Below, in pieces: positions 25,837 to 58,870 of a DNA stretch of 64,000 nt. Position 1 is the first letter of the stretch; each line of letters opens with the position of its first letter. The stretch is from an uncultured delta proteobacterium (GTDB lineage Bacteria; Desulfobacterota; Binatia; JACPRU01), in assembly GCA_963745025.1 (NCBI GenBank), contig CAVUWD010000016.1, positions 320,001 through 384,000 of the forward strand, in the 5' to 3' direction. The notes beneath the pieces were generated by a model that was given only the letters and a program-made list of their open reading frames with translations, was not told where the DNA came from and did no database searches. The position numbers were made by a program, and so were the translations under genes.

Positions 25837-25840
25837 GCGG

Positions 25841-42943: not shown

Positions 42944-43065
42944 GCTGCACTCGTTCGGCAGTGGGGTAGCGGGACGTGTCGCGGCGGCTCGCCGCCGCAA
43001 TGGCGAGCCGCGGATGTGCCACGTCGCGATCCCGAACCACATCAACGAAACGGGAGGATGCATCC

Positions 43066-44298
43066 ATGGAAGACGTGTTCGTCGTCGGGGTGGGTATGAC
43101 GCCGTTCGGCGTTCACACCGGGCGGAGCGTGAAGGATCTCGTCCGCGAGGCGGTCGAGGAGGCGCTCGCGGATGCCGGCGCCACGCGCGCCGATCTCGGC
43201 GCCGCGATCTTCTCGAACCTCGCGCAGGGAGCTCTCGAGGGGCAGTTCGGCACGCCGGGGCAGATCGCGCTCCGGGCCATGGGCATCGAGGCGATCCCGA
43301 TCGTGAACGTGGAGAACGCCTGCGCCAGCGCCTCGACGGCCTTCCACCTCGCCGTGAACCAGGTGAAAGCCGGCGTCTGCGACGTTGCGCTCGCCGTCGG
43401 CGTCGAGAAGCTGAACGTCGGTGACTGGTCCCACCGCATGAAGGTGTTCGACGGCGCGCTCGACGTCGAGGACGGTGGAGCGACGATGCGCCGGCTGCTG
43501 GCGATCGGCGGGATCGACGAATCGGAAGAGCCTTCCGGCCATCGCACCTCGATGATGGACGTGTATGCGAGCTTCGCACGCGCACACATGAAGGACTTCG
43601 GCACCACGCAGCGGCAATTCGCGGCCGTAGCGGCGAAGAACCACGACCACTCCGCCCGAAACCCGAAGAGCCACTTCCGAAAGGCGATGACCGTGGAGGA
43701 GGTGCTCGCGGGGCGGCCTCTGCTGTATCCGCTGACGGTGCCGATGTGCTCGCCGCTCACCGACGGAGCCGCGGCCGCGATCGTCTGCAGCCGCGAAGGT
43801 CTCGAGCGCCTGCGCGTGCCGCGTGCGCAGGCGGTGCGGACCCTCGCGAGCGTCCTCGTGAGCGGTCGCGAGCGCGATCCTCACGACTGGAAGGCGCACG
43901 TGGGCCGGCGTGCGGCAACGAAGGCATATGAGCTCGCCGGCGTCGGCCCCCGCGAGGTTTCCCTCGCGGAGGTGCACGACGCGACCGCCGTAGGCGAGGT
44001 GATCCAGACCGAGTGCCTCGGTTTCTGCGAGCTGGGCGAAGGAGGACGCCTCGCCGAGAGCGGCGCTACGCGACTGGGCGGGCGCATTCCCGTGAACGTC
44101 TCGGGGGGACTCGAATCGAAGGGGCACCCAATCGGCGCAACCGGTCTCGGGCAGATCTACGAGCTGGTCTCGCAGATCCGCGGCCGCGCCGGAGAACGGC
44201 AGGTCGAGGACGCCCGCATCGCCATCGCCGAGAACGGGGGCGGGATCGTCGGCATCGAGGAGGCCTCGGCGTGCGTCACGATCCTCGCGCGATCGTGA
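43066..44298 (+). CDS. Thiolase family protein (paralog of 16409..17641)
   Basis: NVENACASAST, AEVHDA, GGLESKGHPIGATG. Confidence 0.92.
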   Translation: MEDVFVVGVGMTPFGVHTGRSVKDLVREAVEEALADAGATRADLGAAIFSNLAQGALEGQFGTPGQIALRAMGIEAIPIVNVENACASASTAFHLAVNQVKAGVCDVALAVGVEKLNVGDWSHRMKVFDGALDVEDGGATMRRLLAIGGIDESEEPSGHRTSMMDVYASFARAHMKDFGTTQRQFAAVAAKNHDHSARNPKSHFRKAMTVEEVLAGRPLLYPLTVPMCSPLTDGAAAAIVCSREGLERLRVPRAQAVRTLASVLVSGRERDPHDWKAHVGRRAATKAYELAGVGPREVSLAEVHDATAVGEVIQTECLGFCELGEGGRLAESGATRLGGRIPVNVSGGLESKGHPIGATGLGQIYELVSQIRGRAGERQVEDARIAIAENGGGIVGIEEASACVTILARS

Positions 44299-44415: not shown

Positions 44416-45945
44416 TCAAAAGCCGTACGTGCCGCGCAGCGCCAACTCGTCGGCGAAGCCCAGGGCTCCGAGCCTCCCCGGGCGATTCTCCTCGCCGCCG
44501 AGCAGGTTTGCGAAGAGATCGAACCGCCAGTGGTCGCCGACGATTGCGCGCGCTCCGGGCTGTACCCAGTACGCGCCATCGGGGTCGTAGTTGGCGAGCA
44601 GCTCGAGGAACAGGAGCTTGCGCAGCAGCGGCTGTGAGAGCGCGAAGGTGAGCTGCTCCGCCGTAGCGTCGACGCGGGCTCCGTTCGAGCGGATGCCTTG
44701 CGGTGCGCCCGCGACGATCGTCTCGAAGAACGTGAAGCTCAGGATCGTCGTCGCATCCGCTCCGGGGAAGAGGACCGTCGGCCGATCCACCGACAACGCA
44801 TAGCGCCACGTGGCTCGCCGCTCCACTTGCGTGGGCGCCGGCTCCCCGGAACCGGGCGCCTTTTGGTACGGCTGGTCGGGAGCGACCGTTGCCTCGAGGC
44901 GGAAGACCGCGCCGAGCTGCTGCTGGAAGTAGTTGGCCGAACCCCCGGCGAGAAAGACCCGCGGGTGAACGCCGTCACTCAGGAAGCGCAGCGGCACGGT
45001 TTCGCCCGGCGCGACGGGTGTCGGAAGGCCGAGTTTCGGGTCGACGACCGCCCCGCTCGAAAGCAGCACGGCGTCGTCGACCGGCTTCGACAGCGCGACG
45101 AGCGAGAGCGAGGCTCCGAGGATGTTCTCGGTGATGCGGCCGCCGACGGTCCAGTGCCCCCGCGCGGGCTCGTCATGCACGGCGACGAAGCTCGGGGTCA
45201 CATTGTAGGGTGAGCCGAGGGCGGGGAGCTGGGTCGAGATCGAGTCTCCCGGGTTGGCGATGACCTCGAGATCAGTCTCGGCGGACCAAGGATTCGGCAG
45301 CGGCGAGGTCACCCGCAGCATCCACTGCGGGATGCGGATGTTGTCGAACTCCTCGACGAAGGGCTCGAGGAAGAGGTGCCAGTTCAGATCGAGGGGGTTG
45401 ACCACGTCGAGCACGCGCCTTCCCAGCGTCTCGCCCCAGACGACCTGCTGCTTGCCGATGCGCACCCACGCCGCCCCCAGCGACACGTCCGTGTACAGCT
45501 CCCAAGCTTCGGCGCAGGCATGGTCGCTCGACACCCGCATGCTCCAGCCGTCGCCCCGGAACCCCGCAGGGCAGCCGTCGAAGTTGCGCAGGCGCCCGTC
45601 GAGGTCGCTCGCGTGCTCCGTCATCAGGCGGAACTTGCCGAAGAGGCGGAGCTCTTTCGACAGATCGTAGATCAGCTCGAGCTGGCCGAAGGAGCGGAAG
45701 AGGTTCACCGTGTGTGCGGTGTCGTCGACGCCCCGGTTGTTGGGATTCCTGCCGTCGAGGGAGATCGCGCTCTGTAGGCGCTGGAATCCCGTGGCGTCCA
45801 GGTGCGGGTAGTCCGCGGCCGAAACCGTACCGCTCCCGATCGCTACGAGGATGATCCACCAGGCGAGCCACGCCGTCCGCGCGCCGCCGATCGCCGGACT
45901 GCGCGGATTTAGTAGGCCGCCCGCAGCATCGCTTCCTCGGTCCAC
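44416..45945 (-). CDS. DUF1302-like outer-membrane beta-barrel protein (start uncertain)
   Basis: Signal-like hydrophobic N-terminus, RIGKQQVVWGE, DVVNPLD, RIPQWM, C-terminal aromatic TYGF. Confidence 0.75.
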   Translation of the reverse strand: MDRGSDAAGGLLNPRSPAIGGARTAWLAWWIILVAIGSGTVSAADYPHLDATGFQRLQSAISLDGRNPNNRGVDDTAHTVNLFRSFGQLELIYDLSKELRLFGKFRLMTEHASDLDGRLRNFDGCPAGFRGDGWSMRVSSDHACAEAWELYTDVSLGAAWVRIGKQQVVWGETLGRRVLDVVNPLDLNWHLFLEPFVEEFDNIRIPQWMLRVTSPLPNPWSAETDLEVIANPGDSISTQLPALGSPYNVTPSFVAVHDEPARGHWTVGGRITENILGASLSLVALSKPVDDAVLLSSGAVVDPKLGLPTPVAPGETVPLRFLSDGVHPRVFLAGGSANYFQQQLGAVFRLEATVAPDQPYQKAPGSGEPAPTQVERRATWRYALSVDRPTVLFPGADATTILSFTFFETIVAGAPQGIRSNGARVDATAEQLTFALSQPLLRKLLFLELLANYDPDGAYWVQPGARAIVGDHWRFDLFANLLGGEENRPGRLGALGFADELALRGTYGF

Positions 45946-47213
45946 AGATCCTCGAGCTTCCTCCCGGCGTTCTTCTCGACCGAGGGGGCGTCGACCCAGA
46001 TGTAGGTGACGTGGTCGGCGAGCAGGTCCATGGTGTGGTTGGGATGGTTGAACGAGATGACGGTCTCGCCGTCCTTGCGGATGCGGGCGTGATGGTGGAC
46101 GCCCGTCTTCCACACCCGGCCGGTGCGGTCGTAGAAATCGAAGACGAGTGGCTTGCGCATCACCGAGTCGACGTAGAGGATCTTCTTCGCGTACGGGCAC
46201 TGCGGATCCTTCGGCACGGCCTCGAGGATCTGGACGTCGGGCCGAAGCTCCCAGCGCCCGCGGGGGAAGCGGCCGGCGATCGTCGGCAGGGGATCGATCT
46301 CGTAGCCGTCCGACACGCCGGGGAGGATCATCGGCCGGCGCTCGGCGAGGGTCCACGACCAGCGGCTCAGCGGATCGTTGTTGCCGTTGTGGTCGCTGCG
46401 GAAGATGTCGTTGCCGCTGGCGGATTCCCAGCGCTGGTAGGTCGGCACCTCGCGCACGCGGCGCGTGGCGGGTACGTAAGCGTAGGCTCGCTCGAGCAGC
46501 GTCTGATCGTAGGGCCGCACGGTGAGCACCGCGAGGCCGCGGTAGTCGAAGGGCTCCACGTAGCGGATGAGCAGGCGGTAGAGCTCGTCCTCGTGCCCCG
46601 GGTAGAACGGCGCGGGCGGCATGCGCGTGCGGCCGACCGTGCTGATGCCTGTGAAGATCCACCGCAGAGACCGGTAGACCTCGCCCTTGCGGATCAGGTG
46701 CTCGCCGCCGCCGTAAGAGAAGTCGTCGGCATACTCGATCCACGAGGCGCTGGCGATGTTCCACGCCGCCTCGAGGCCTGTCCTGGGCTCGAGGAAAGGA
46801 AATCCGCCGATCCACGGGCGCCCATCGCGCGTGCGAAGCTGCCCCTTCTCGTCGAGCACGGCCATCCCGCGATGGTGCTCGCTTGCCTCGAGCCAGGGCT
46901 CGGGGACCAGCCGGCGCTCGTCGGTCGTGGTCGGGCCGACCGTGAGCTCGAGCCCGTACCGCGCGATCTGCTCGCGCGTGCCCGCGGGCAGGAGATCCTT
47001 CACGACCGTCACGTTGTCTCTCGTGATCGTCGCGCCGACGCTGATCCGTCCGCCGGTGAGGTCGTCGAGAGTGGGCGATGACGCGGCCGCCGCCGATCGC
47101 GCACCCCAGCCGGGGACCGCGGATCGCAACGCGCAGAGCCCGGCCGTCGCGCCAGCCATCTTGAGCAATCGCCGCCGATCCAGCGCGAAAACGGCGGCGG
47201 ATGGGTCGCTCAC
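45909..47213 (-). CDS. DUF1329-like periplasmic protein with Tat signal
   Basis: LDRRRLLK...SAAA signal, GFPF.EP..GLEAAWN, YVPATRRVR, YDRTGRVWK. Confidence 0.78.
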   Translation of the reverse strand: MSDPSAAVFALDRRRLLKMAGATAGLCALRSAVPGWGARSAAAASSPTLDDLTGGRISVGATITRDNVTVVKDLLPAGTREQIARYGLELTVGPTTTDERRLVPEPWLEASEHHRGMAVLDEKGQLRTRDGRPWIGGFPFLEPRTGLEAAWNIASASWIEYADDFSYGGGEHLIRKGEVYRSLRWIFTGISTVGRTRMPPAPFYPGHEDELYRLLIRYVEPFDYRGLAVLTVRPYDQTLLERAYAYVPATRRVREVPTYQRWESASGNDIFRSDHNGNNDPLSRWSWTLAERRPMILPGVSDGYEIDPLPTIAGRFPRGRWELRPDVQILEAVPKDPQCPYAKKILYVDSVMRKPLVFDFYDRTGRVWKTGVHHHARIRKDGETVISFNHPNHTMDLLADHVTYIWVDAPSVEKNAGRKLEDLWTEEAMLRAAY

Positions 47214-47752
47214 CACGGTGAGCCCAGCGTGCCTTCGAAGAAGCCGCCGAAACGCAGAAAGCCACCCACCATCACCGCGACCATCCCCGCAATCGCGTTG
47301 TAGCGCGCGAGCCGGCGCATCCAGGCTGCGGCGTTCGGCGCCGCGGCGCGCTTGTCCTCGATCTCCTGGCGGCTGGCGTCGTACGGGAGCTTCACGATGA
47401 CTCGCGGGCGCAGGTAGAAGGTGAGGATCGCCCCGTTCACCGTCACCGTCAGCCAGATCGTCATCATGACGAGCAGCGCGCTGCCGTATCCGGTGAGGTA
47501 GAAATGGTAATCGACGAGATCCCAAGTCAGCCCGAAGCGGGTGGTCAGGAAGAGCCCGGTGAGCGGCAGGCCGATCAGCGTTCCCCAGATGAGGCGCGCG
47601 AATGTGACGCCGAGCCGGTCGCCCAGGCGCGCCGCCTGTCCAGGGGGAATGAGATCGAGTTTGGGTGTGAGCAGGAAGTCGAGGAACACGTTGGCGCCAA
47701 CGAAGATCGCCGCGAAGAGCAAGTGCAGACCGACGAGGAGGGAGTTGATCAT
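47210..47752 (-). CDS. Four-helix integral membrane protein (CopD/DUF2269-like)
   Basis: Four hydrophobic segments, His in TM1 (GLHLLFAAIFVG); start and stop overlap both neighbours. Confidence 0.75.
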   Translation of the reverse strand: MINSLLVGLHLLFAAIFVGANVFLDFLLTPKLDLIPPGQAARLGDRLGVTFARLIWGTLIGLPLTGLFLTTRFGLTWDLVDYHFYLTGYGSALLVMMTIWLTVTVNGAILTFYLRPRVIVKLPYDASRQEIEDKRAAAPNAAAWMRRLARYNAIAGMVAVMVGGFLRFGGFFEGTLGSPW

Positions 47753-48861
47753 TGCGTTCCCGCCCAGTAGCTCCCAGCGCGCAGGGTCTCGAGGTCCGCT
47801 TCCAGTTGCCGCACGTGCTCGCCTGTATCTCCCTCGACGCTGACGCAGGCCTTCGCCCACTCCGCGCAGTACGCGCAGCGCTGGCAGTCGAGGGAGCAGT
47901 GCCCCTCGCGGAAGAACCGCAGGAAGCCGTCGAGCCGGGAACTCGCCATGTGCACGCGCGGCGCCGTCGGAGTCTCCCCCGACAGCGTCTCCATCGGCTG
48001 GACGGCGACGAGCAGCTCGGCCACATCTTCGCAGCGCCGGCGGTGATAGGCTTCGGCCACCTTGAGGATCCACGGCGTGTGCGAGCTCGGGCCGTCGCCC
48101 ATCTTCTCTCGGCCCGCGACCTTGAAGAAGTCGATCCCGAGCTGCTCGTACTGGGCCACGTCCTCGGGCCGGATCCACGGCGCCCGCAGGTACTCGACCA
48201 CGTCGTTGCCTCGCGCCAGCGAGCAGCGGTAGTAGCAGTAGTCGACGTAGTAGTGCCGTTCGATGCTCTCCGCGGAGTGGGAGATCATGTTGGCGTGGTA
48301 GTGACGGATCGGGCAGGAGAGCAGGCAGCCCTCGTTGACCACCACCGACAGGGGGCAGTCGACGGCGCGGCGGATGATCTCGAGGCGGCGGAAGTCGCGG
48401 TTGATCTGCGGGTCGATGTGGATGAGGTCCGCCCCGAGGTCGCGAAAGTACGCGGCCTTGCGGGCGTCGTCCACCGCCGCCAGCACCGACACCTGGAGCT
48501 CGAGCTCCGGGAAGTTTTTGCCAACGAGCTCCATCACGTATGGGTTCGCGGTGACCACCGCGGTCGCCCCGACCGCGCGCAGCCACTCGAGCCGTTGCAG
48601 AATCTCCCAGCGTCCGTCCTCGGAGAGCTCGCGGTTGCCGAGGCAAGTGGCGTTCATCACGTAGGTGAACTTGATGCCGCGCTCTTCCATCTGCTGGATC
48701 TGGCTCGCGACTTCCTCTTCCGTCACCTCCGGCAACACCAACGAAGAGCGTACCGTGGCTTCGCGGGGCAGGCTGCCGTAGAGATACGCGGGCTTGAGAC
48801 GGGCCGCGCGCGGGAGCAGCTCCGGATCCCAGTTCGTGGGTAGAATCAGCTTTCCGTCCAT
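47749..48861 (-). CDS. U32-family (UbiU/UbiV/RlhA/TrhP-like) Fe-S protein
   Basis: TYVMNATCLGN, VNEGCLLSCPIR..H, YCYYRC, WIRPED, FKVAGRE, CSLDCQRCAYC. Confidence 0.85.
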   Translation of the reverse strand: MDGKLILPTNWDPELLPRAARLKPAYLYGSLPREATVRSSLVLPEVTEEEVASQIQQMEERGIKFTYVMNATCLGNRELSEDGRWEILQRLEWLRAVGATAVVTANPYVMELVGKNFPELELQVSVLAAVDDARKAAYFRDLGADLIHIDPQINRDFRRLEIIRRAVDCPLSVVVNEGCLLSCPIRHYHANMISHSAESIERHYYVDYCYYRCSLARGNDVVEYLRAPWIRPEDVAQYEQLGIDFFKVAGREKMGDGPSSHTPWILKVAEAYHRRRCEDVAELLVAVQPMETLSGETPTAPRVHMASSRLDGFLRFFREGHCSLDCQRCAYCAEWAKACVSVEGDTGEHVRQLEADLETLRAGSYWAGTQ

Positions 48862-50156
48862 TATGCCCTCCGTTGCTCCGGCGCGCCGAGCTCGGAACGT
48901 TCGATCACCTGCCGGAACGTCCACGCGAGGCGGACGTCGCCGAGCCAGACGAGCTCGACCTCGGGAACTTGCAGTCGCTCGTAGAGCCGCGCCTCCAGGG
49001 CCGGCGCGTTGATAGCCGCTCCTTCGATCGCGGCGGTCAGCCGGTTCTCGCCTCCTCGGACCAGCACGAGGTTGCGCCCGACGAGATCGGCGTCCTCGTC
49101 GACGGCGAGGCGCACGTCGTAGGCGGTGATCGTCCGCCCGCCGACGACCACACTGCTCTCCGGCCGCCCGTACATCTTGAGCCGGCGCAGCACCCGGCCG
49201 CACGGGCACTCGCCGGGCAGGAAGGCCGCGACGTCCCCGGTGCTGTAGCGGACGACGACGCTGCCGCTGCCCACTGTGAACTTGGTGACGACGAAGCTGC
49301 CGCGCTCTCCCGGCGGCACCGACCGCCCCGCGGCGTCCACCACCTCGAGGTACGCGGTGTCCTCTTGAATGTGCGGGCCGGTATGCGAGGGACAATCGTC
49401 GAGGCCGATGCCCGCCTCCTGGCACCCGGCCTTCTCGAAGACGTCGCCGACGCCCAGGCGCTGGCGGAGGAAATCACGCAGGCCGGGTGTGAGCGGCTGG
49501 CCCACGGCGACGATCGAACGCACACCGCGGAACGTGTCGCGCAGGCGGATGCGGTGGTCTTCGCCGTAGCGTACGCACGAAAGCAGGAAGGGCGAGGTCG
49601 TACTCACGAGCTCGGGACGGATGGCGGCGACGGTTCGCAGGAAGCTCGCGATCGAGTCGTTCCCCATGCTGCCCCAGAAGTAGGCGATCGACCCGCCGAG
49701 ACGTGCGATCGCGTGAGCCTCGGCGGCGGCGAGCTTGTGCCACGCGGGGCTCAGCAGCAGCGCCGTCATCCCCGGCCGGAAACCCATCCACGAGAAGGCG
49801 CGCAGCAGCCCGCGTATGCCGTACTGCTGATCCTCGAGGCTCGACCAGAGCAGCAGCGGCTCTCCGGAGGTACCGCGCGTGCTGAAGCCGACGCAGCCGT
49901 GGGCGGAGCCGGTCCAGTCCTCTCCGGCCCGCACGAGGATGTCCTTGTTCACGACGGGGAACGATTCGAAGTCCGCGATCGATCCCAGGCGGGCGCAGGA
50001 CATCCCGGCGCGCCGCCAGAGGTCGCGGTAGAAGGGAACCTCGGCCCTGGCGTAGTCCACCACCTCGCGCAAGCGCTCGAGCTGCCAGGCGGCGAGCTCC
50101 GCCGCCGACCAGCGCTCGACCTCATCGAACCGATTCTCTGCGAGCTCCGCCGTCAT
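48861..50156 (-). CDS. Phenylacetate--CoA ligase (PaaK)-family protein
   Basis: QLERLREVVDYARAEVPFYR, variant P-loop STRGTSGEP, VRYSTGD, CPCGR. Confidence 0.8.
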   Translation of the reverse strand: MTAELAENRFDEVERWSAAELAAWQLERLREVVDYARAEVPFYRDLWRRAGMSCARLGSIADFESFPVVNKDILVRAGEDWTGSAHGCVGFSTRGTSGEPLLLWSSLEDQQYGIRGLLRAFSWMGFRPGMTALLLSPAWHKLAAAEAHAIARLGGSIAYFWGSMGNDSIASFLRTVAAIRPELVSTTSPFLLSCVRYGEDHRIRLRDTFRGVRSIVAVGQPLTPGLRDFLRQRLGVGDVFEKAGCQEAGIGLDDCPSHTGPHIQEDTAYLEVVDAAGRSVPPGERGSFVVTKFTVGSGSVVVRYSTGDVAAFLPGECPCGRVLRRLKMYGRPESSVVVGGRTITAYDVRLAVDEDADLVGRNLVLVRGGENRLTAAIEGAAINAPALEARLYERLQVPEVELVWLGDVRLAWTFRQVIERSELGAPEQRRA

Positions 50157-50851
50157 TCGAGCACCTTCAAGTCCGGGCCGAGGCCCACCAAACGCACGCA
50201 GCAGTCCTCGGGTCCGAGCGGACACTCGCCGACGCGCGGCCGTCCGACGGTTGCGAGTCGCACAGACTTGGTCGAGGGGGCAAGCAGGTTCACTACTCGA
50301 TCGCCGTCTCTGCGGTAGACGCCGTGGCGCAGGTGGAAATGGTGGCAGCGCGGGCACTCGGGCGCGAGCAGGAGCGCCGACTCGATGTTGAGGAGATAGC
50401 GCGGGGTCCGTCCGCACTCGACGCGCGGTGCGTCGCCGTCGATGGCCACGATCAGCGACGGACAGCGCGAGAGCAGGTGCGCCCCGCCGCGCTCGTCGAC
50501 TTCCCGCAGCAAGCCGAGTACCTCGGCGCGGACGACCAGAACGTCGATCTGCACCTGGTCGGCAAGCGCCGGGGTAAGGGCCACGCGCTCTGGCGACGCG
50601 TCGAGACAGACGATGCGCCCGTGGAGCCGCTCGGCGACGCCGTTTTGCAGGTGCGGCATCAGCGAAGAAGAGCCGAGAAACGCGAGGGGGCTCGTGCCGT
50701 AGTCCTGGACGGCGATCGTAGCGCCATCCTCGACGCCAAGGACGCGGTAGCACCAGGCGAGGTGCTCGGCCCAAATGTCGAGGTCGTTTTCCCCGAAGAG
50801 GAGCCGGCCGTTCGGCACGTCGAAGCTGAGGCGCGCACCCTCAGGAAGCAT
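50153..50851 (-). CDS. Truncated PaaK-like protein
   Basis: ENDLDIWAEHLAWCYRVLGVEDGATI..DYG resembles the PaaK central region; no P-loop; Cys-rich tail. Confidence 0.55.
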   Translation of the reverse strand: MLPEGARLSFDVPNGRLLFGENDLDIWAEHLAWCYRVLGVEDGATIAVQDYGTSPLAFLGSSSLMPHLQNGVAERLHGRIVCLDASPERVALTPALADQVQIDVLVVRAEVLGLLREVDERGGAHLLSRCPSLIVAIDGDAPRVECGRTPRYLLNIESALLLAPECPRCHHFHLRHGVYRRDGDRVVNLLAPSTKSVRLATVGRPRVGECPLGPEDCCVRLVGLGPDLKVLE

Positions 50852-52064
50852 GCGTCGCCTCTCGCGGCACTTCACCGTGCAGTGTCACGACTCCGACGTT
50901 GTCCATGCTGGCCATCTGATGAGTGCGAAAGAGCTTCCCCACCCTCAGCTTGGTGTCATCGACCCCGCCCGCATAGCCGACCATGCCCGACAGCGTCTCC
51001 ACGCAGGCCTCGGCCTGGTCGAGCATTTCCCAGGGAACGAGCGAGACCTTTCCGCTCGCGGGGTCGATGGGCACGAGGCTCACGTTGACCAGTGGGAAAC
51101 CATGCGCCCTCGCAGGGAACCACGTGGGATGCGGCGCGACGATCGGTCCAACCTCCGCCAGGCCCCAGACGGGTAGGATCGCCTGACCGAGGAGCTTCTC
51201 GAGCCGTCGCCTCCAGGCCGGATCGAAGCGGGCGGTTGAGACGAAGATATAACGGAGGCCGGCTAAGGCCGCCGGCCGTCTGCGACGGCGCAGCACCTCG
51301 TCCGCCTGGCGCCGGACGAGAATCGTGTACGCCTCGCGATCGGCGTCGAGCGCGCCACCGCTCTTACCTCCGCGGTCCGGGAAGACGATGGGCATGCCCT
51401 GAAGGAGAGCGCCGAACATGCCGACGACCGCTTCCCAGGAGTCAGGCGGTGGCAGGCAGACGAAGGCGAGCTCGCGGAGCGGTGGGATGAACGTGGCGAG
51501 CGAGGTGCACATGGCCGCGATGGAAAAGTGCGAATGAACGACGACACCCCGCTCCCCCGGAATCAGCACCGCGGGATCGAGGGCGCGCCTCGGCCGGGGG
51601 CTCTGGCGATACGCGTCGGCGAGCTCCGCTCGGTGGAGCACGGGGAGCCCCGAACGCTCGGCGCCCGGCCCGGCTCCGCTCGCGGTGATGATCGCGGCCG
51701 CCTCCGCGGACTTCAGATGCGCGGCCTGCTCCTCGACCGCCCGGCTCGGGTCGGTCACCAGCACTCGTTTCTCCGCGAGGAGAGCCGCGAGGAGCAGGAC
51801 CAGCGCGTCGGGGCCGCTAGCCTCGGCGACCGCGATGGTGCCGCCGAGGTCTCGCTTCTGGATGCCGCCTGCCACAGAGAGCGCCTGCTCGAGGAGCTCG
51901 CCATAGGTCAGCCGACCTCCCGCCCACACCAGCGCGGGTCGTTCTTTCGCGCTCGTGGCCCGACGCTTCACGAGCCACTCCAACGCCTGCGGCGGTACCC
52001 CGATCCGTCGCGGTACGCCCGTAGGCCAGTACCACGAGGGAATGGCCCCGCCCACTTTCGACAT
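50841..52064 (-). CDS. Degenerate AMP-binding (ANL superfamily) protein, N-terminal domain only
   Basis: ERPALVW.GGRLTYGEL, VWGLAE, MVGY, FRTHQMASMDNVG. No TSGTTG P-loop and no C-terminal subdomain. Confidence 0.65.
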   Translation of the reverse strand: MSKVGGAIPSWYWPTGVPRRIGVPPQALEWLVKRRATSAKERPALVWAGGRLTYGELLEQALSVAGGIQKRDLGGTIAVAEASGPDALVLLLAALLAEKRVLVTDPSRAVEEQAAHLKSAEAAAIITASGAGPGAERSGLPVLHRAELADAYRQSPRPRRALDPAVLIPGERGVVVHSHFSIAAMCTSLATFIPPLRELAFVCLPPPDSWEAVVGMFGALLQGMPIVFPDRGGKSGGALDADREAYTILVRRQADEVLRRRRRPAALAGLRYIFVSTARFDPAWRRRLEKLLGQAILPVWGLAEVGPIVAPHPTWFPARAHGFPLVNVSLVPIDPASGKVSLVPWEMLDQAEACVETLSGMVGYAGGVDDTKLRVGKLFRTHQMASMDNVGVVTLHGEVPREATHAS

Positions 52065-52072
52065 AGCGGCTC

Positions 52073-54988
52073 TTAACCCTGGAACGCGGCCTTCTCGAAG
52101 GAGACGTTCGTCTGCCGGTCGGTCTGCAGCGGAGCCCAGTTCCACAGCGTGTACTCGTAGTGGCGGTAGCCGCCCGCGAACTGTAGCCCTTTCGGCACCC
52201 CCGGCAGGAGGCCGTCATACGGCATCCAGTTCGGGTACTGGTACGGCTCCCAGGCGTGGTAGATCACCACCTGATCGCGCCGCGTGCACGGGGAAAGCTT
52301 GGCGCGCACCAGGAACTCGCCGTAGTCGTTGAAGACGCGGACGAAGTCGTTGTCCTTGACGCCTTTCTCCGCCGCAACCTCGTCGTTGACGAAGATGAAG
52401 GGCTCGCCGCGGTGGAGCTGCAGCATCTCAGGCGAGACGATCCAATTGGCGTGGACGCTCCAGCGCAGGTGTCCGCTGGTGAGCCGCAGGGGATGGTGGC
52501 CGGCGATGAACGGCGGCTCCTTGAAACGGACCAGGTGCTCGTCGGCCTCTATGAACCAGGGGTGGTCGAGGTAAAACTCGATGCGCCGCGTGGTCGTCGC
52601 GTACGGGACCTTTTGGTCCACCTGATCACGGAACGGCACGTGGATGTCGCCGGGGATCATATCGGCATTTTGCACCACCGAGGCGTGCCACGTCGGGCGC
52701 CCGGAGAGCCACGCCTTGCCCGTGCGCCGCACGTTCTCGAGGCTCACCTCGTCACCGTCGAGGCTCGTGTACCAGCCCATCTTCCCCATGGCGCGATAGG
52801 TGCCGTCGAGCAGTCGCTCCTCGTCCTCGTTCGAGTCGCCGTAGCGATGCCCGTAGGTCGCCCGCCAGTAGAGCTCGTCGACGACGATCTCGCGGTCACC
52901 CGACTTGTACTTCTCGATGCCCCGCGCCTTGAGGCCCTTCTCGCAGCCGCGCACGAGCCCGAGGACGATCTGGCGATCGCTCTTCGACTCGCCGAGCATG
53001 GGCACGGACTGGTCGGTGAAGGTCATGAACCGCGTGTGCGGCGTCGAGTACTTGGCGTCCGCGTACTCGTAGTGAGAGGCCGCCGGCAACACGTAGTCGG
53101 AGAAGAGCGCGGTCGTGCTCCAGCGCGGATCCAGCGTCACCACCAGGTCGAGCTTCGGCCAGAGCGTCTTGAAGTAGGTGTTCATGCCGCCGCGATGGCG
53201 ACGCAGCGGGTTCGAGCCCGACACGAACATCACCTTCGGCGGGCAATCCTTCGCGGGCCTGTCGAACCCCTTCCACCACCCCTTCGCGATGGCCTCCTCG
53301 GCGTATTCGCTGATCTTCTTCTTGCAGTTGGGATCCTCGAGATGCTTGTCCCACACCTCCTTGTAGCCGGCGTGGTGGTACCAGAGGGCCCAAGGGGGAG
53401 AGAGGGTTCCGGCGGCCCGCAAGAGCTCGCGGAGCGAGCCGAGGGACGCCTCCACCGGAGGCATCGTCGGATCCATCTTCACGCGGTTCTTGTAGTCCTC
53501 CATCATCATCTGGAACATGTTCATCGTGCTCGCGATCGGATCCTCGGCCTCGATCGTGTCCTTCGGCATACCGCTGACGATCGGCATAGCGCAACCGAAC
53601 TCCGTCCCCGCCGACCAGCCGCGTGAACCCGTGCCCGCTTTGCCAAGGTTTCCGGTGAGTGCGAGCATGTAGCAGTAGGAGCGCTCGAGCAGGTCGCCGT
53701 GGTAAAGCTTGCCGGCGTTCCAGTTCACGAAAACGAAGACCTTGCGCGGCGGCCGACAGAGATCGGCGATCTGCTGCAGCGTCTCAGGATGCACGCCCGC
53801 CTGCTCGTGCACTTTGTCGGGGGTGTATTCGGCGACCCGCTCCTTCAGCAGGTGGAAAACCGTTGTGACCGCGATCTCCTTTCCGTCCTTCAGCCGCACC
53901 GTCTGCGTCCCGTCGAGGGCGTAGTCACCCGACATCCGTAGCGTATCCTTGGGCAACGGTACGATCTTTCCGGAGGCATCGAGAGCGTAGAACTGTTCGG
54001 CGTCACCGCCCTCCTTGAGATCGGCCTCGCGCAGGAACCGCTTGTCGTCGCTGCGCACGAGCACCGGCAGGTCCGTCTGCTCCTTCATGAACTCCTCGTC
54101 GATCCAGCCGTTCTCGATGAGGATCCGGCAGACACCGAGCCACAGCGACGGGTCGGCCGACCAGTTGATCGGCACCCACACGTCGGCGAACTGCGCGGAG
54201 GCGTTCTTGTCCGGTGCGATGGCGACGATCTTTGCGCCGCGGTAACGCGCCTCGAGCATGTAGTGGACGTCGGGGATGTTCGCGTAGATGGGGTTCGAGA
54301 GCATGATGATCGTGTCCGGGAGAAACCACGTCTCGATCCCGGGGGTGTGCTGGAACTGCCCGAACGTCAGATACTGACCCACGTTGAAGTCGCCGATCAT
54401 GAAGTTGATGTCGAAGCTGACGCCGCCGAGGAGGGCGGTGAGGCCGGTGATGGTGATCTCGCTCGCGCCGCGGACGATGCCGAGGCCGTTCGTGCAGTGG
54501 TCGTCGATCACCGACTGCGGCCCGTGCTTCTCGATCGCCTCCGCCGTCTTGGCACCGATCTCGTCGAAGGCCTGCTCCCAGGTGATGCGCTCCCACTGGC
54601 CGCTGCCGCGCTCGCCCTTGCGCTTCATCGGATAGAGCACGCGGTCGGGTCCGTACATCGAGCGCGAGTGCTGGTAGCCCTTCTGGCAACCCCGGGGGTT
54701 GTAGTCCGGAACGCGGTACTCGGGGTCTGTGAACTCCGGATACGTGCACGAGATCTCCTCGCGGATCACCTTTCCGTCCTTGACGTACACGCGGAACGGG
54801 CAACTCCCCGGGTAGCAGTTCACTCGGTGCGTGCCCCACTTCCAGCAGTCGAATTTGAAATAGTCATCGGGTGATACGACGTCCCCCGCGTGTGGGTAAG
54901 CCCGTGCTCGTCGAGATACTGCGAGAGCCTCCTCACGCTGTTCGACGATCGTCGGGACCGCGGCATCGGTGTCATTCTTGTTCGTCAT
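52073..54988 (-). CDS. DMSO-reductase type II molybdoenzyme alpha subunit, ethylbenzene/steroid-C25 dehydrogenase-like; no Tat signal
   Basis: FS0 motif THRVNCYPGSC...NPRGCQKG, Asp-ligand region MIGDFNVG, SDYVLPAA, GHLRWSVH, VIYHAWEPYQ. Confidence 0.88.
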   Translation of the reverse strand: MTNKNDTDAAVPTIVEQREEALAVSRRARAYPHAGDVVSPDDYFKFDCWKWGTHRVNCYPGSCPFRVYVKDGKVIREEISCTYPEFTDPEYRVPDYNPRGCQKGYQHSRSMYGPDRVLYPMKRKGERGSGQWERITWEQAFDEIGAKTAEAIEKHGPQSVIDDHCTNGLGIVRGASEITITGLTALLGGVSFDINFMIGDFNVGQYLTFGQFQHTPGIETWFLPDTIIMLSNPIYANIPDVHYMLEARYRGAKIVAIAPDKNASAQFADVWVPINWSADPSLWLGVCRILIENGWIDEEFMKEQTDLPVLVRSDDKRFLREADLKEGGDAEQFYALDASGKIVPLPKDTLRMSGDYALDGTQTVRLKDGKEIAVTTVFHLLKERVAEYTPDKVHEQAGVHPETLQQIADLCRPPRKVFVFVNWNAGKLYHGDLLERSYCYMLALTGNLGKAGTGSRGWSAGTEFGCAMPIVSGMPKDTIEAEDPIASTMNMFQMMMEDYKNRVKMDPTMPPVEASLGSLRELLRAAGTLSPPWALWYHHAGYKEVWDKHLEDPNCKKKISEYAEEAIAKGWWKGFDRPAKDCPPKVMFVSGSNPLRRHRGGMNTYFKTLWPKLDLVVTLDPRWSTTALFSDYVLPAASHYEYADAKYSTPHTRFMTFTDQSVPMLGESKSDRQIVLGLVRGCEKGLKARGIEKYKSGDREIVVDELYWRATYGHRYGDSNEDEERLLDGTYRAMGKMGWYTSLDGDEVSLENVRRTGKAWLSGRPTWHASVVQNADMIPGDIHVPFRDQVDQKVPYATTTRRIEFYLDHPWFIEADEHLVRFKEPPFIAGHHPLRLTSGHLRWSVHANWIVSPEMLQLHRGEPFIFVNDEVAAEKGVKDNDFVRVFNDYGEFLVRAKLSPCTRRDQVVIYHAWEPYQYPNWMPYDGLLPGVPKGLQFAGGYRHYEYTLWNWAPLQTDRQTNVSFEKAAFQG

Positions 54989-55016
54989 CGTCGTGTTCTC
55001 CTCGATTGGAGGGCGT

Positions 55017-56039
55017 TCAGCCGAGCGAGTTCTGCGGCGCGTCCACGCTGAACGGCGTGAAGGCGTCCGCCCAACGGTAGATGATCAGCAGGTCCATGAG
55101 CTCGGAGCGCTCGCCGGCGGCGGCTTTCTCGCGATGCTCCTTCAACGTGGCGAGCGCCTGATCGACCTCCGGCCCGAAGTAGCTGCGCAGCAGCTGGATC
55201 GGAATGTCGGCTGCCGCAGTCGGTTGATTGCCGGGGCCGAGGTGCGGCGGTCGCACGAAGGGCGGCACGTAGTAGACGTTCGGCTCCGTGCCGAAGTCGG
55301 GCCGCAAGGGGAGAGCCACCTTGTACTGCTTGACGAGCTTGTGGATGTAGCTCGCCTTGTCGTCCAGATAGCCGAATAGCATGGCCCGGGCGGGACAGCT
55401 CTTGGCGCATACCGGCGCGTAGTCCTTCTCGACGCGCATCACGCAGAAGTCGCACATCTCGGCGACGGAGTTCTTCAGGTTGCTCATGGGGATCTTGTAG
55501 GGGCAGCCCGCCACACACACGCCGCAGTCGTCGCACGACTTCGGATCGATCATCACGATCCCGTCCGACTCGCGCTTCGACATGGCCGGGGCGGCGCCGA
55601 TGTCCGCGGCGTGCTCCTCGCACGCCTTCACGCACGGCGGGTTCGTGCAGTGATTGCAGAGGCGGGGCATGTAGAAAAAATGCCCGTTCGGCCACTGGCC
55701 CGCCCCCTGGTCCTCCTCCCAGATCGGCCCCCACGTCGGGGTCTGGCCGGTCTCCTCGACGATCGGGCGCAGGTACTTTTCACGGTTCCCCGATTCGTAG
55801 ACACCCTTCCAATCGAAGGTCCACGTGCCGCCGTAGTCATGCACCCGGTCGGGAATCTTGCGGCCGGCCTCCATCCAGTTTCTCGGCCAGCCCTTGCCGG
55901 GCTTGGTCTCGACCCAGATGTAGTAGAGCATCTCGCAGCCCGGCCGGTTCAGGCGGTGGGTGCGGCAGGTCACCGTGCACCCCTGGCAGCCGATGCACTT
56001 GTCGAGATTGATTACCATCGCGAGCTGTTTCGTTGCCAT
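55017..56039 (-). CDS. Fe-S beta subunit (EbdB/NarH-like)
   Basis: NLDKCIGCQGCTVTC, VETKPG, GPIWEED, CNHCTNPPCVKAC, CDDCGVCVAGCPY, CDFC...CAKSC, FGTEPNVYYVPP. Confidence 0.9.
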   Translation of the reverse strand: MATKQLAMVINLDKCIGCQGCTVTCRTHRLNRPGCEMLYYIWVETKPGKGWPRNWMEAGRKIPDRVHDYGGTWTFDWKGVYESGNREKYLRPIVEETGQTPTWGPIWEEDQGAGQWPNGHFFYMPRLCNHCTNPPCVKACEEHAADIGAAPAMSKRESDGIVMIDPKSCDDCGVCVAGCPYKIPMSNLKNSVAEMCDFCVMRVEKDYAPVCAKSCPARAMLFGYLDDKASYIHKLVKQYKVALPLRPDFGTEPNVYYVPPFVRPPHLGPGNQPTAAADIPIQLLRSYFGPEVDQALATLKEHREKAAAGERSELMDLLIIYRWADAFTPFSVDAPQNSLG

Positions 56040-56097
56040 CGCGCGCTCCTCTTCTCTCTTTTCCTATTATTATCGTTGCTCTCTGGTTGTTGGCTTT

Positions 56098-56113
56098 TGC
56101 ATTAGCCATGCCA
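56098..56113 (-). promoter_or_regulatory. Sigma-54 promoter for the Mo-enzyme operon
   Basis: Minus strand TGGCATGGCTAATGCA = GG-N10-GC. Confidence 0.75.
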
Positions 56114-56343: not shown

Positions 56344-56359
56344 TGGAACGATCCTTGCG
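56344..56359 (+). promoter_or_regulatory. Sigma-54 promoter for the bcr-like operon
   Basis: TGGAACGATCCTTGCG = GG-N10-GC with TTGC. Confidence 0.78.
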
Positions 56360-56386
56360 ATGTCGGTACTGTACGTTAGCGCTGCA

Positions 56387-57547
56387 ATGAACCTACTGGC
56401 GGAATTCGATGGCGAGCCCCTGGAAGAGGTCCTTACGCTCTGCCGCGACTGCATCGAGGACGCGAAGTTCGACACCGTGCGCCGCTGGCGCGAGACCGGC
56501 GGTAAGGTCGTTGGCCATTTTCAAGTGTATTTTCCAGAGGAGATCGCGCACGCGGCCGGACTCTTGCCCGTCAAGGTACGAGGCGCACAGGTCGAGACCC
56601 CGCAAGCGGACTCTCGCTTCGGATCGTACCTGTGCTCGATTCTGCGCACGTCGCTCGAGCTGGCGCTCAGCGACCGGCTGAAGCTCGACCTCTTCATCAC
56701 TCCCCCGATTTGCGACGCCGCACGCAACCTCGCCGGCATCTGGGCCCGGAATTTCTCCTACCCTGCGCAGATCCTCTATCTGCCGCAGAATCCCAACTCT
56801 GCCCACGCCGCGGCGTACCTCACCGGCGAATACGGGCGTCTCAAGGAAGTCATCGAGGGCGTGGCGGGGAAGCGGGTCGGCGACGACGATCTCCGTCGCT
56901 CGATCGCGATCTTCAATCAGAATCGGAGCCTGATCCGAGAGCTCTATGCGATCAAGCGGGAGGCGCCTTGGTTGCTCTCCGTCGAAGATGCGTACGCCCT
57001 CGTGGGCGTCGGCGGTCTGATCCCTCGGGAGGAGCACAACCGGCTCCTCGCCGCCCAGATACCGCGGATCCGCGCCCGCTCCGCGCGGAGGCAAGACAAG
57101 ATCCGCGTGGTCTTCGAGGGGGGCTTCTGCGAGCAGCCCCCGCTCGAGATGCTGCGGGTCATCGGCGAGTCCTGCTACATCGTGGACGACGACCTGCTCA
57201 TCGGTCTGCGCTGGATCGAGGAGGACGTGCCGCTCGAGGGTGATCCGCTCGCTAACCTGGCCGAGGCCTACCTCGAGCGCTCCTCCTACAGTCCGGTGCA
57301 GCACGACTTGCGAAAGCCGAAGGAGCGGATGCTGCTCGAGCGCATTCGGCGCGCAGGCGCCGACGCCGTGATCCTCACCGCCGCGAAGATGTGCGAGCCG
57401 GGCCTGGACGAGCAGGTGACCTACACGAAGACCCTCGACGCGGCCGGCATACCCTACTTCGTCAGCGAGTTCGAAGAGAAGATGACGAGCTTCGACCATC
57501 TGCAGATGCAGCTCGAGACATTCGCCGAGAACCTGCTCTTCGATTGA
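56387..57547 (+). CDS. bcrC: Benzoyl-CoA reductase subunit C-like (HAD/BcrC family)
   Basis: [53 protein letters not shown]. Confidence 0.78.
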
Positions 57548-57580
57548 GGGCCGAATGGACCGAGCTAGAAACCGGAAACG

Positions 57581-58870
57581 ATGACGGACCAGGAAAGCAT
57601 CGTAGGCCGCGGGGCGAAGGAAGGAAGCCGGCTCTTCCGCGAGTGGTACGGCGGTCTCAACGCCGCTGCCGAGCGAGGGGCGCCGACCGCATACGTCTTC
57701 GTGATGGGCAGCATCGCCGAGATCCTCCGGGTCTTCGACTTCTGCATGGTCTTCCCGGAGATCAACTCGCTGCAGACCGCGGTGCGTGGCGTCGCGCAGG
57801 ACTACCTGAACCAGGCCGAGGAATACGGGTACTCGACGGACATCTGCGGCTACTTGAAGGCCGACGTCGCTCTACAGCTGCGCCAGGGTGCTCATCCGAT
57901 GGGGCGGATCCCCAAGCCCACGCTCGCGGTGGTCACCAACGCCTGCAACACGTACATCAAGTGGGCCGAGATCTGGGAGCGTCTCCACCACATCCCGATC
58001 TTCACGATGGACGTGCCCGGGGCGCGCAGCGCCGGAGAAGAGCCGCGCTGCGGAAGTAAGGAGCTCGAGCGAGACCGCGGCTACGTCGAGGCGCAGCTCC
58101 GTGAGCTCGTCGCCCTCTGCGAGCAGCTGACGCACAAAAAGCTCGATCTCGATCGGCTGCGCGAGGTGCTGAGTCACACCAACGACATGAGCCGCAGCTG
58201 GCGCCGCATCCTCGAGCTCAACCAGGCGAGCCCGGCCGTGTTCAACGCCTTGACCGACGGGACGATCTTCCTCGGTGTCGCCAACGCCCTGCGGGGAACC
58301 GCCGAGGGCGCCGCGTATTTCCGCGACCTCGTCGAGGAGATGGAGCTGAAGGCGAGTCGGGGAATCGGCGTGTTGCCCGAAGAAAAGCACCGCCTCACCT
58401 TCGTAGGGGTCCCGTGCTACCCGATGTTCAGGCGCTTCTACGAGCTCTTCGCCGAGTGGGGCGGCGTCTTCGTGAACTCGACGTATCTGTCCTTTGCGGC
58501 CGGGGGCCTGAATCTCGGCTACCAGTACGACCTCGAGCGCCCGCTCGCCAGCCTGGCCGAGGGAATCCTCATGAGCCTCCGGCACAGCATGGACGCCATG
58601 TTCTTCCAGGACCGCTCGCTGGTGGAAATGGCCCAATCGTTCCGGGTGGACGGAATCGTCTACCACCCGATCAAGAGCTGCCGCACGGTCTCCACCGGGC
58701 TCGCGGACAATCGCCGCGCGGTCATGGAGAGGTACGACGTGCCGTGCCTCTTCATCGAGTCGGACATGATGGACAAGCGGGTGGTCGCCGAAGCCCAGCT
58801 CAAGAATCGGATCGACGCCTTCTTCGAGGGCCTAGCCAGCCGCAAGCTGCGCGCTCAGGCGCGCCCGTAG
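57581..58870 (+). CDS. bcrB: Benzoyl-CoA reductase subunit B-like
   Basis: PEINSLQ, STDICGYLKAD, CNTYIKWAE, GVPCYP, IKSCRTVS, KNRIDAFFE. Confidence 0.78.
   Translation: MTDQESIVGRGAKEGSRLFREWYGGLNAAAERGAPTAYVFVMGSIAEILRVFDFCMVFPEINSLQTAVRGVAQDYLNQAEEYGYSTDICGYLKADVALQLRQGAHPMGRIPKPTLAVVTNACNTYIKWAEIWERLHHIPIFTMDVPGARSAGEEPRCGSKELERDRGYVEAQLRELVALCEQLTHKKLDLDRLREVLSHTNDMSRSWRRILELNQASPAVFNALTDGTIFLGVANALRGTAEGAAYFRDLVEEMELKASRGIGVLPEEKHRLTFVGVPCYPMFRRFYELFAEWGGVFVNSTYLSFAAGGLNLGYQYDLERPLASLAEGILMSLRHSMDAMFFQDRSLVEMAQSFRVDGIVYHPIKSCRTVSTGLADNRRAVMERYDVPCLFIESDMMDKRVVAEAQLKNRIDAFFEGLASRKLRAQARP

Follow-up and report, generated by a model that had tools for sequence, protein, structure and literature searches.

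We describe a nine-gene operon in a 64,000-nucleotide stretch of DNA (the window; contig CAVUWD010000016.1, positions 320,001 to 384,000, GenBank assembly GCA_963745025.1) from an uncultured bacterium of the class Binatia (Desulfobacterota). The operon is predicted from its sequence to encode a previously undescribed cytoplasmic system, in which a molybdenum (Mo) enzyme resembling ethylbenzene dehydrogenase (EBDH) and steroid C25 dehydrogenase (S25DH) is accompanied by a fixed set of accessory proteins. The genes are numbered here g1 to g9 from the promoter-like site onwards: the beta and alpha subunits of the Mo enzyme (g1, g2), three proteins with the fold of adenylate-forming ligases (g3–g5), a U32-family iron-sulfur protein (g6), a small membrane protein (g7), and two envelope proteins of the DUF1329 and DUF1302 families (g8, g9). 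An earlier note on this DNA, made from the letters alone, knew of no described system of this composition. This still stands: no characterised pathway was found to match the operon, and no published description of the gene combination was found in the literature, with subscription journals and supplements falling outside the coverage.

Organization of the operon

The nine genes are co-directional on the minus strand (44416–56039), mostly overlap, and lie behind a sigma-54-like promoter site. Since the window is GC-rich (62–70%), the real reading frames were chosen by third-position GC content and family matches. Gaps of 28 nt and 8 nt separate g1 from g2 and g2 from g3, after which every junction is an overlap: 35 nt for g3/g4, 4 nt for g4/g5 (ATGA), 1 nt for g5/g6 (TAATG), 4 nt for g6/g7 (ATGA), 7 or 4 nt for g7/g8 (GTGA) and 37 nt for g8/g9. 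The overlaps on either side of the U32 gene, with g5 and with g7, are kept in all nine of the homologous loci in which both junctions are readable.

A sigma-54-type –24/–12 promoter-like site of the GG-N10-GC pattern, TGGCATGGCTAATGC (56113–56099, minus strand), lies ~58 nt 5' of g1 and has two mismatches to TGGCAC-N5-TTGC. In the window the bare GG-N10-GC pattern occurs 56 times, for 44.9 expected, and 7 of 100 shuffles reach that count, so that by itself it is not significant. Of 11 homologous loci, 10 have, 58–344 nt 5' of beta, a TGGCAY-N6-TGCA site that agrees at 9 or more of the 11 specified positions; by a rough estimate such a site arises by chance in a few percent of 400-nt stretches, the shuffles having been applied to the bare pattern in the window only. 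The genome contains 24 matches to sigma-54 activators, the nearest at C16:408865 and none inside the window, and a simple scan found no intrinsic terminator 3' of g9. These readings agree with the earlier note, which had listed nine same-strand genes, all now located on the minus strand, with overlapping start and stop codons (ATGA, TAATG, GTGA) behind a GG-N10-GC promoter; the promoter-like site is present and has a counterpart at 10 of the 11 homologous loci examined.

Conservation of a seven-gene core

The order beta, alpha (one to three copies), g3, g4, g5, U32, g7 is kept in Binatia-class genomes and in an Actinomycetota metagenome-assembled genome (MAG), and partly in a Gammaproteobacteria MAG. 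Because the same order recurs in so many loci, the arrangement is far beyond chance. The earlier note had suggested co-occurrence in other genomes as a check on its reading, and the core does recur, both in other genomes and in metagenome loci. It had drawn the unit as nine genes, which holds for the window and its own lineage; elsewhere the conserved unit consists of the seven.

To locate homologues of the Mo enzyme, an alignment of the alpha clade was searched against one genome per species, and 64 loci were kept. Among the 20 loci whose alpha is at least 61% identical, 12 carry g3, g5 and the U32 gene 3' on the same strand; 11 of these 12 also have g4 and 9 have g7, while two of the loci stop inside the U32 gene. 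The locus in the Gammaproteobacteria MAG (L017) has no g4 and ends after the U32 gene. Most core loci carry two tandem alpha genes and two carry three. None of the 44 loci whose alpha is at most 44% identical has g3–g7.

A second scan, anchored on the U32 protein and run against metagenomes, yielded 80 loci. One (L072) is a near copy of the window, running from g5 to g9 and on into thiolase, hemerythrin and mutase genes, and the whole core is present in four others (L073–L076). In L078–L081 the U32 protein belongs to a set 37–40% identical to that of the window and stands among alpha genes without a twin-arginine translocation (Tat) signal; two of these loci (L080 and L081) each pack one beta, one delta, a UbiD-family gene, the U32 gene and five Tat-less alpha paralogues into ~20 kb. 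In five loci (L082, L083, L084, L103 and L113) the U32 gene adjoins g3 and g5 on the opposite strand, in some cases with g4 and g7, and wherever all four occur their order is g7-g4-g5-g3. In L084 a gamma-beta-delta-U32 operon faces a beta-beta-delta-alpha-g7-g4-g5-g3 operon, and in L082 and L113 DUF1329 and DUF1302 genes stand beside the U32 gene.

The other 64 U32 loci (28–42% identity) showed no such partners, except for one weak g3-like match and one alpha fragment. Twelve of them were picked and nine annotated; in these nine the U32 gene has as neighbours either full-length AMP-binding ligases together with genes of fatty-acid synthesis, or radical SAM genes of the B12-binding kind. At the distant loci L085, L095, L100, L112, L114, L124–L126 and L140 (30–36% identity) the radical SAM neighbours often come with tandem U32 copies, and other neighbours include an aromatic prenyltransferase with a LuxE-type acyl-protein synthetase, or chorismate synthase nearby.

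In a sample of 120 genomes of the class, the alpha clade was found in 5, the window-type U32 in 6 and neither in 114; these counts carry no statistics, as related genomes are not independent samples. All five genomes with the alpha clade have the U32 gene within 10 kb. In the sixth, U32-only genome the contig ends inside g4, and what remains reads g4-g5-U32-g7-DUF1329-DUF1302 at 62–87% identity, so that the nine-gene form occurs elsewhere in the family of the window's organism. The locus of the Actinomycetota MAG reads beta-alpha-g3-g4-g5-U32-g7, with identities of 44–64%. In a Sterolibacterium MAG (L015) a 2-oxoacid:ferredoxin oxidoreductase adjoins a beta and two alphas of the clade, and no U32 protein was found in this MAG at E ≤ 1e-20.

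The molybdenum enzyme

The beta subunit g1 (55017–56039, minus strand, 340 aa) is an EbdB-like iron-sulfur protein of the type II dimethyl sulfoxide (DMSO) reductase family, as assigned by Pfam and NCBIfam (Fer4_11, 92 bits; TIGR03478, 352.5 bits against a cut-off of 480.7; EbdB model, 315 against 740). The alpha subunit g2 (52073–54988, minus strand, 971 aa) is an EbdA/S25DH-like, Tat-less molybdopterin protein, which matches the Pfam Molybdopterin family with 107 bits and contains a Molydop_binding domain (TIGR03479, 764.5 bits against 984.75; EbdA model, 611 against 2000). All four curated NCBIfam scores are under the cut-off. The best solved relative of g2 is the alpha chain of EBDH (2ivf_A, E = 1e-171), with D200 aligned to Asp223, the Mo ligand, and K427 to Lys450. 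Among 12 clade members D200, K427 and the FS0 motif H-x3-C-x4-C...C (H54, C58, C63, C101) are invariant or nearly so.

A check for a twin arginine followed by a hydrophobic stretch found no Tat signal on the alpha of the window or on any of 64 members of its clade (at least 61% identity). In Pfam none of the nine operon proteins matched the EB_dh gamma family (PF09459) or the NarJ-like delta family (PF02613). The genome's gamma and delta copies sit 24–40 kb from the operon or on another contig, and its NarJ-like delta genes are found only at C16:399078 and C16:410032. Because a Tat signal and operon-borne gamma and delta genes are missing and the NCBIfam scores stay below the cut-offs, the enzyme of the window is predicted to be cytoplasmic; by its sequence it also is not a standard EBDH. 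The earlier note's assignment to the EBDH family holds for the type II alpha/beta family and the Mo ligand, but the enzyme has neither the Tat signal nor the operon-borne gamma and delta genes of that family and scores below its NCBIfam cut-offs.

In a quick maximum-likelihood tree (IQ-TREE, 35 rows selected from more than 120 available sequences) the alpha clade is fully supported and is set off from the other EBDH-like sequences by a long stem (1.2 changes per column). The alphas that adjoin U32 genes split into two separate lineages in this tree (the loci concerned include L078–L081 and L084), and the association of U32 with a Tat-less alpha has therefore arisen, or been kept, more than once. 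In some database sources, members of the clade go under the name 'steroid C-25 hydroxylase alpha'.

The same genome contains a canonical, periplasmic-type EBDH-like cluster (L069, C16:404001–424000), in which a Tat-bearing alpha is encoded with gamma, beta and a delta chaperone, with cytochrome b561 and a multi-heme cytochrome c, and with two regulatory proteins, a sigma-54 activator and one of the PadR type. Its presence indicates that the Tat-less form is a distinct enzyme and not an annotation artefact. An orphan Tat-less alpha, ~70% identical to g2, lies next to a glycogen phosphorylase gene elsewhere in the genome (L070 8075–10948, C12:103075–105948), with no beta and none of g3–g7 nearby.

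The ligase-like proteins

The three proteins encoded after the Mo enzyme had been described in the earlier note as adenylate-forming folds, the second of them as a truncated PaaK; both descriptions agree with the matches found here, that of g4 at the level of the fold. The g3 protein (50841–52064, minus strand, 407 aa) is a degenerate AMP-binding (ANL) N-terminal-domain protein without the C-terminal domain, matching PF00501 with 85 bits over profile positions 2–362 of 384. In the alignment its P-loop region reads LLPxGRGxVxHSH, the TGD motif is lost and the protein stops before the hinge; the motifs YWP, HPTW and GFPLVNV are invariant in their place.

The g4 protein (50153–50875, minus strand, 240 aa, or 232 aa if translation starts at the ATG at 50851) matched no Pfam family, and BLASTP found no similarity to g5. 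Its AlphaFold model (mean pLDDT 77) matches PaaK1 (2y27; Foldseek E = 2e-6, TM-score 0.62 on the query). The P-loop is absent and the segments DFGSSPxSFLGSS and CxxCxxFHLR are conserved, so that the protein is best described as a truncated PaaK fold without a P-loop. The family is small; a profile of g4 run against 1.84 billion proteins finds only 81 representatives at E ≤ 1e-3, of which nearly all measure 220–340 aa. A role of g4 as a NarJ-like chaperone was considered and rejected, the fold search having returned PaaK-type N-domains only. At L005 (16849–17571) a g4 homologue translates with one internal stop, which may stem from a frameshift, a sequencing error or the choice of coordinates.

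The g5 protein (48861–50156, minus strand, 431 aa) is a PaaK-like adenylate-forming ligase by Pfam, NCBIfam and the solved PaaK structure 2y4o (E = 2e-19). It scores 37 bits for the AMP-binding family, 115 bits for the DVU_1553-family ligase and 66 bits for PaaK (TIGR02155), whose cut-off is 646, and by these scores is not a PaaK equivalog; proteins of this type also match the coenzyme F390 synthetase model. The P-loop residues G95, T96 and G98 (GT.G), D308 of the TGD motif and R331 of the GR motif are invariant in 13 sequences. Since g3 and g4 lack the ATP-binding motifs, only g5 of the three looks catalytic, and the operon likely encodes one ligase enzyme together with two conserved non-catalytic relatives.

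The U32 protein and the membrane protein

The earlier note's U32 assignment of g6 (47749–48861, minus strand, 370 aa) is confirmed by PF01136 (Peptidase_U32, 32.9 bits against a cut-off of 22.4) and by PDB entry 5d88, which it matches by sequence (E = 8e-18) and by fold (E = 2e-13; model mean pLDDT 86.5). In 16 sequences C73, C183, C213, H189, H195 and the cysteines C322, C326, C329 and C332 are invariant and C179 is nearly so; the last four cysteines form an extra, invariant C-terminal motif, C-x3-C-x2-C-x2-C. Against the UbiU and TrhP equivalog models g6 scores 16 bits, far under their cut-offs.

The g7 protein (47210–47752, minus strand, 180 aa) is a small CopD/DUF4149-like membrane protein, with a CopD score of 30.1 bits just below the cut-off of 32.1; its Atlas neighbours are CopD-like hypothetical proteins. 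Three hydrophobic segments rise above the hydropathy threshold, and inspection by eye adds a fourth, weaker one. H10 in the first helix, an IPP motif, W100, R135, W144 and R147 are invariant in seven sequences.

The envelope proteins

The last two genes belong to the operon of the window and its relatives rather than to the core. By Pfam, g8 (45909–47216, minus strand, 435 aa) is an exported, LolA-like DUF1329 protein (155 bits) whose N-terminus reads DRRRLLK followed by a hydrophobic stretch, and g9 (44416–45945, minus strand, 509 aa) is a DUF1302 protein of the outer-membrane type (62 bits) with a signal-like N-terminus. The Binatia-type loci, too, have DUF1329 genes 3' of the core, and the proteins that these encode carry Sec-type signals. 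The g9 protein is 94% identical to its counterpart in L072 and 77% to that in L153, and g9-type DUF1302 genes adjoin distant U32 genes in L082 and L113. Overall, DUF1329 usually accompanies the core, and DUF1302 is limited to the window's own lineage and a few distant loci.

Separable modules

A second g7-g4-g5-g3 set is present in the window's genome (C16:1013989–1018138). Its proteins are 25–33% identical to those of the operon and keep the g7 invariants, and no Mo enzyme lies within 10 kb of it. At this locus (L068 9987–15598, C16:1013986–1019597) the module is preceded by a gene for a 461-aa protein, and genes for a short-chain dehydrogenase/reductase (SDR), an enoyl-CoA hydratase (ECH) and a methyltransferase are nearby. 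The 461-aa protein gave no Pfam, NCBIfam or PDB sequence match, and the possibility that it is a diverged U32 protein was rejected (BLASTP E = 0.5). The metagenome locus L103 mirrors this arrangement, the 461-aa proteins being 74% identical, and adds a U32 gene, a thiolase, CoA-transferase subunits and a linalool-dehydratase-family gene. As judged from gene order, the Mo enzyme, the U32 protein and g7-g4-g5-g3 are three recombining units, a pattern predicted by a pathway-level link more than by one obligate protein complex.

Neighbouring genes

Divergent from g1, at 56344–60597 on the plus strand, lies a BcrC/BcrB/BcrA/BcrD-like cluster, immediately preceded by the sigma-54-like site TGGAACGATCCTTGC (56344–56358); all four of its subunits score under the equivalog cut-offs for benzoyl-CoA reductase. 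A second Bcr-like copy (C16:419316–423460, 73–78% identity) lies by the canonical EBDH-like cluster, and a third beside an alpha paralogue in L018. On the other side, 3' of g9 (40369–44298), are genes for an SCPx-type thiolase, a hemerythrin and, on the minus strand, the large subunit of an acyl-CoA mutase; L072 has these three genes in the same place after its operon, and homologues of the mutase and thiolase recur near the core or near distant U32 genes in L005, L103, L108 and L141. Farther away, at 16409–27451 on the plus strand, a thiolase gene is followed by ApcA/ApcC/ApcD-like acetophenone carboxylase genes (336, 566 and 319 bits, all below cut-off), and the same stretch contains a gamma-type small subunit, a 256-aa protein without a family and an acyl-CoA ligase.

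At other loci the surroundings differ. In L073, L074 and L016 g7 is followed by MoaA, an exported DUF1329 protein, a PF09655 'nitrate reductase-associated' protein and an MqnC/CofH-like radical SAM enzyme, and in L074 also by MoeA; PF09655 was not found in the window's genome. In the Actinomycetota MAG (L152 11671–14156) two MqnC/CofH-like radical SAM genes come after g7, and NifS, NifU and a thioesterase come before beta. The 5' neighbours at other loci include sterol carrier protein 2 (SCP2) proteins, FAD desaturase-like genes, ECH, a mutase with its B12-binding subunit, and UbiA, and related loci also hold genes for alcohol, aldehyde and acyl-CoA dehydrogenases, CoA-transferase and linalool-dehydratase-family proteins.

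Comparison with known systems

The enzyme of the window shares with EbdABC(D) of Aromatoleum aromaticum (2ivf) the type II DMSO-reductase architecture, the iron-sulfur beta subunit, the Mo-ligand Asp, the Lys and the FS0 motif. Unlike EBDH, it has no Tat signal, heme-b gamma subunit or delta gene, scores 611 bits where the EbdA cut-off is 2000, sits on a long separate stem and is accompanied by g3–g7.

The S25DH and S26DH enzymes of Sterolibacterium denitrificans are periplasmic and made up of alpha, beta and gamma, with Tat signals and a delta chaperone; several alpha paralogues are encoded per beta, unactivated side-chain carbons are hydroxylated with water, and an ATP-dependent step stands between two Mo hydroxylations (PMC7411048). 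The window system and its relatives resemble them in that multiple alpha paralogues share one beta and putative ATP-using proteins accompany the Mo enzyme. The system differs in being Tat-less and alpha-beta only, and its ATP-using proteins have the ANL fold instead of being a kinase and a lyase.

U32 proteins are proposed to be prephenate-dependent, oxygen-independent hydroxylases, including those of ubiquinone hydroxylation; the evidence for this activity comes solely from E. coli, by genetics and isotope labelling, and most subfamilies are uncharacterised and without a known electron acceptor (PMC10990095). The g6 protein has in common with UbiU/UbiV, TrhP and RlhA the U32 fold, by sequence and by model, and the conserved barrel Cys; it is set apart from them by its 16-bit scores against the UbiU and TrhP models, the additional four-Cys motif at the C-terminus and its membership in a Mo-enzyme operon.

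Relative to PaaK and PaaK-like ligases such as 2-hydroxyisobutyryl-CoA ligase (6hdw), g5 has the fold, the P-loop and the TGD motif and g4 has the N-domain fold, whereas g5 reaches about a tenth of the PaaK cut-off (66 bits against 646). The motif-less g3 and g4 differ further from the PaaK family in being always encoded with g5 and g7, and they are without a described counterpart. Finally, the predicted cytoplasmic location is shared with members of the DMSO-reductase family that face the cytoplasm, such as NarGHI and PadBCD, NarG and NarH being more distant relatives of alpha and beta. In NarGHI and PadBCD electrons pass to a membrane subunit. The operon of the window differs from both in having no NarI- or PadD-type anchor; its g7 is CopD-like and NarJ is not encoded in it.

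Possible function

We tentatively favour the reading that the operon is a catabolic module, under sigma-54 control, that breaks down a hydrophobic carboxylic acid without oxygen, while allowing that it may well prove to be something else. The substrate would probably be an isoprenoid-like or alkyl-aromatic acid. The family folds and signal peptides of the exported DUF1302 barrel and the LolA-like DUF1329 protein suggest that these carry the substrate across the envelope. Judging from its fold and motifs, g5 would then activate the substrate with ATP to an acyl-AMP or acyl-CoA, probably in a complex with g3, g4 and g7, which is proposed because the four genes travel together. The Tat-less alpha-beta enzyme, with its Mo-bis(molybdopterin guanine dinucleotide) cofactor, could next place a water-derived hydroxyl group on an unactivated C–H bond of the activated substrate, and the U32 protein could follow with another step that needs no oxygen, a hydroxylation of the prephenate type or a redox reaction. 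Electrons would leave through the iron-sulfur chain of beta to an acceptor that replaces the heme-b gamma subunit, possibly g7 and quinone, or else a ferredoxin. Two types of anaerobic hydroxylase could act on one substrate after its uptake and activation with CoA or AMP, as the earlier note had already supposed. The exported DUF1329 protein, the SCPx-type thiolase, the acyl-CoA mutase, the beta-oxidation-type neighbours and the divergent Bcr-like cluster support a catabolic module.

A more specific form of this proposal, which we regard as unlikely, is that the core is a cytoplasmic machine for oxygen-free C–H functionalisation, in which a water-dependent Mo hydroxylase that has lost its Tat signal, heme subunit and chaperone, a U32 prephenate-type hydroxylase and an ATP-dependent ligase with two pseudo-ligases mounted on g7 work in sequence on one hydrophobic substrate. 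It would be an AMP-based counterpart of the cascade of S25DH, kinase and lyase, and S26DH, and g7 would serve as electron acceptor for the U32 protein.

Several observations weigh against a catabolic module. The role of g3 and g4, which have no catalytic motifs, is a guess. The presence of MoaA, MoeA, PF09655 and radical SAM genes, or of NifS and NifU, around the core fits a role in cofactor supply or maturation as well as it fits catabolism, and the U32 gene of L084 has an overlap with the gene for a NarJ-like delta protein. The neighbours point to both aromatic and isoprenoid substrates, so that the context is not convergent. Eight of the 20 alpha-clade loci have no g3–g7 nearby, although two of these eight have almost no 3' flank, and the alpha clade without U32 in the Sterolibacterium MAG implies that the Mo enzyme can exist without this partner.

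Some of these points lead to what we see as the main rival, itself a rather improbable one: that g3–g7, with the U32 protein among them, are the assembly, cofactor-handling or electron-exit set of a Tat-less Mo enzyme and stand in for delta and gamma. The U32 clusters and g7 might, for example, form an electron path to quinone, and the ligase-like proteins might handle a cofactor intermediate. The operon has neither a gamma nor a delta gene, its core is translationally coupled (with the overlaps around the U32 gene kept in 9 of 9 readable loci), and the U32 gene accompanies the alpha clade in 5 of 5 genomes of the class sample and shares an overlap with delta in L084 and with one of the alphas in L080. 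The genes that follow the core in Binatia-type loci (MoaA, MoeA, PF09655, radical SAM) and precede it in the Actinomycetota MAG (NifS/NifU) would suit such a role too. However, g7-g4-g5-g3 occur without a Mo enzyme within 10 kb in L068, where SDR and ECH genes are the neighbours, and in L103, with U32, CoA-transferases, a thiolase and a linalool-dehydratase-family gene; distant U32 relatives adjoin acyl-CoA ligases or B12 radical SAM enzymes and not Mo enzymes; and the window's genome lacks PF09655. Delta chaperones are moreover retained alongside U32 in L080/L081 and in L084, the last of which also has a gamma-like gene. The simple idea that U32 replaces gamma is weakened by L084, where one operon encodes a gamma-like protein, delta and U32.

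Two further explanations address the pathway itself. One, which we consider quite unlikely, is a non-orthologous replacement of the anaerobic phenylacetate route, in which g5 would form an arylacetyl-CoA, an EBDH-like benzylic oxidation would lead through an arylglyoxylate to an aroyl-CoA, and the Bcr-like enzyme would reduce the ring. The PaaK-like character of g5 suits this, as does the chemistry of EBDH, which is benzylic hydroxylation. Its analogue would be phenylacetyl-CoA:acceptor oxidoreductase (PadBCD), which oxidises the benzylic methylene. The BcrCBAD-like cluster, preceded by a separate sigma-54-like site, is transcribed away from the operon and recurs beside the alpha paralogue in L018, the 2-oxoacid:ferredoxin oxidoreductase of the Sterolibacterium MAG lies directly 5' of beta-alpha, and acetophenone-carboxylase-like genes are present in the window. 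Yet g5 falls far below the PaaK cut-off, the Bcr-like subunits stay under theirs, and in the other Binatia-type loci the 10 kb around the core contain no Bcr-like genes. An arylacetate route also leaves U32, g3, g4 and g7 without a role, and the SCP2, desaturase, UbiA, mutase and linalool-dehydratase-like neighbours suggest isoprenoid-type substrates. Still less probable, in our view, is a biosynthetic function, in which the set would modify an endogenous prenylated aromatic or quinone-like lipid or make a redox cofactor under anoxia, with the U32 protein acting like UbiU/UbiV and the Mo enzyme hydroxylating the side chain. SCP2, FAD desaturase-like, UbiA, UbiD, methyltransferase and MqnC/CofH-like radical SAM neighbours in related loci, the match of g5-type proteins to coenzyme F390 synthetase and the link of U32 proteins to oxygen-independent ubiquinone hydroxylation (PMC10990095) would agree with it. 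Against this, the patchy spread (window-type U32 in 6 of the 120 class genomes) better fits an accessory catabolic island, and the exported uptake-type proteins and beta-oxidation-type neighbours argue for catabolism, as do the one to five alpha paralogues per beta, a feature of the catabolic S25DH systems (PMC7411048).

Significance

The proposed catabolic module bears on how bacteria hydroxylate without oxygen. Only two oxygen sources for anaerobic hydroxylation are known to us, water (Mo enzymes) and, since 2024, prephenate (U32), and here both families are represented in a single operon that is kept in at least two phyla. To our knowledge, the EBDH/S25DH-type hydroxylases characterised so far are all periplasmic alpha-beta-gamma enzymes; a large clade that is predicted to have neither Tat signal nor heme subunit raises the questions of where its electrons go and which CoA- or AMP-activated substrates come within its reach in the cytoplasm. 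For the U32 family, the fixed partners of this subfamily make the question of function and acceptor testable, and g7-g4-g5-g3 emerges as an unannotated four-gene unit built on two apparent pseudo-ligases. As the carriers are abundant uncultured bacteria of soil and groundwater, the pathway may matter for the anoxic turnover of lipids, terpenoids or alkyl-aromatic compounds.

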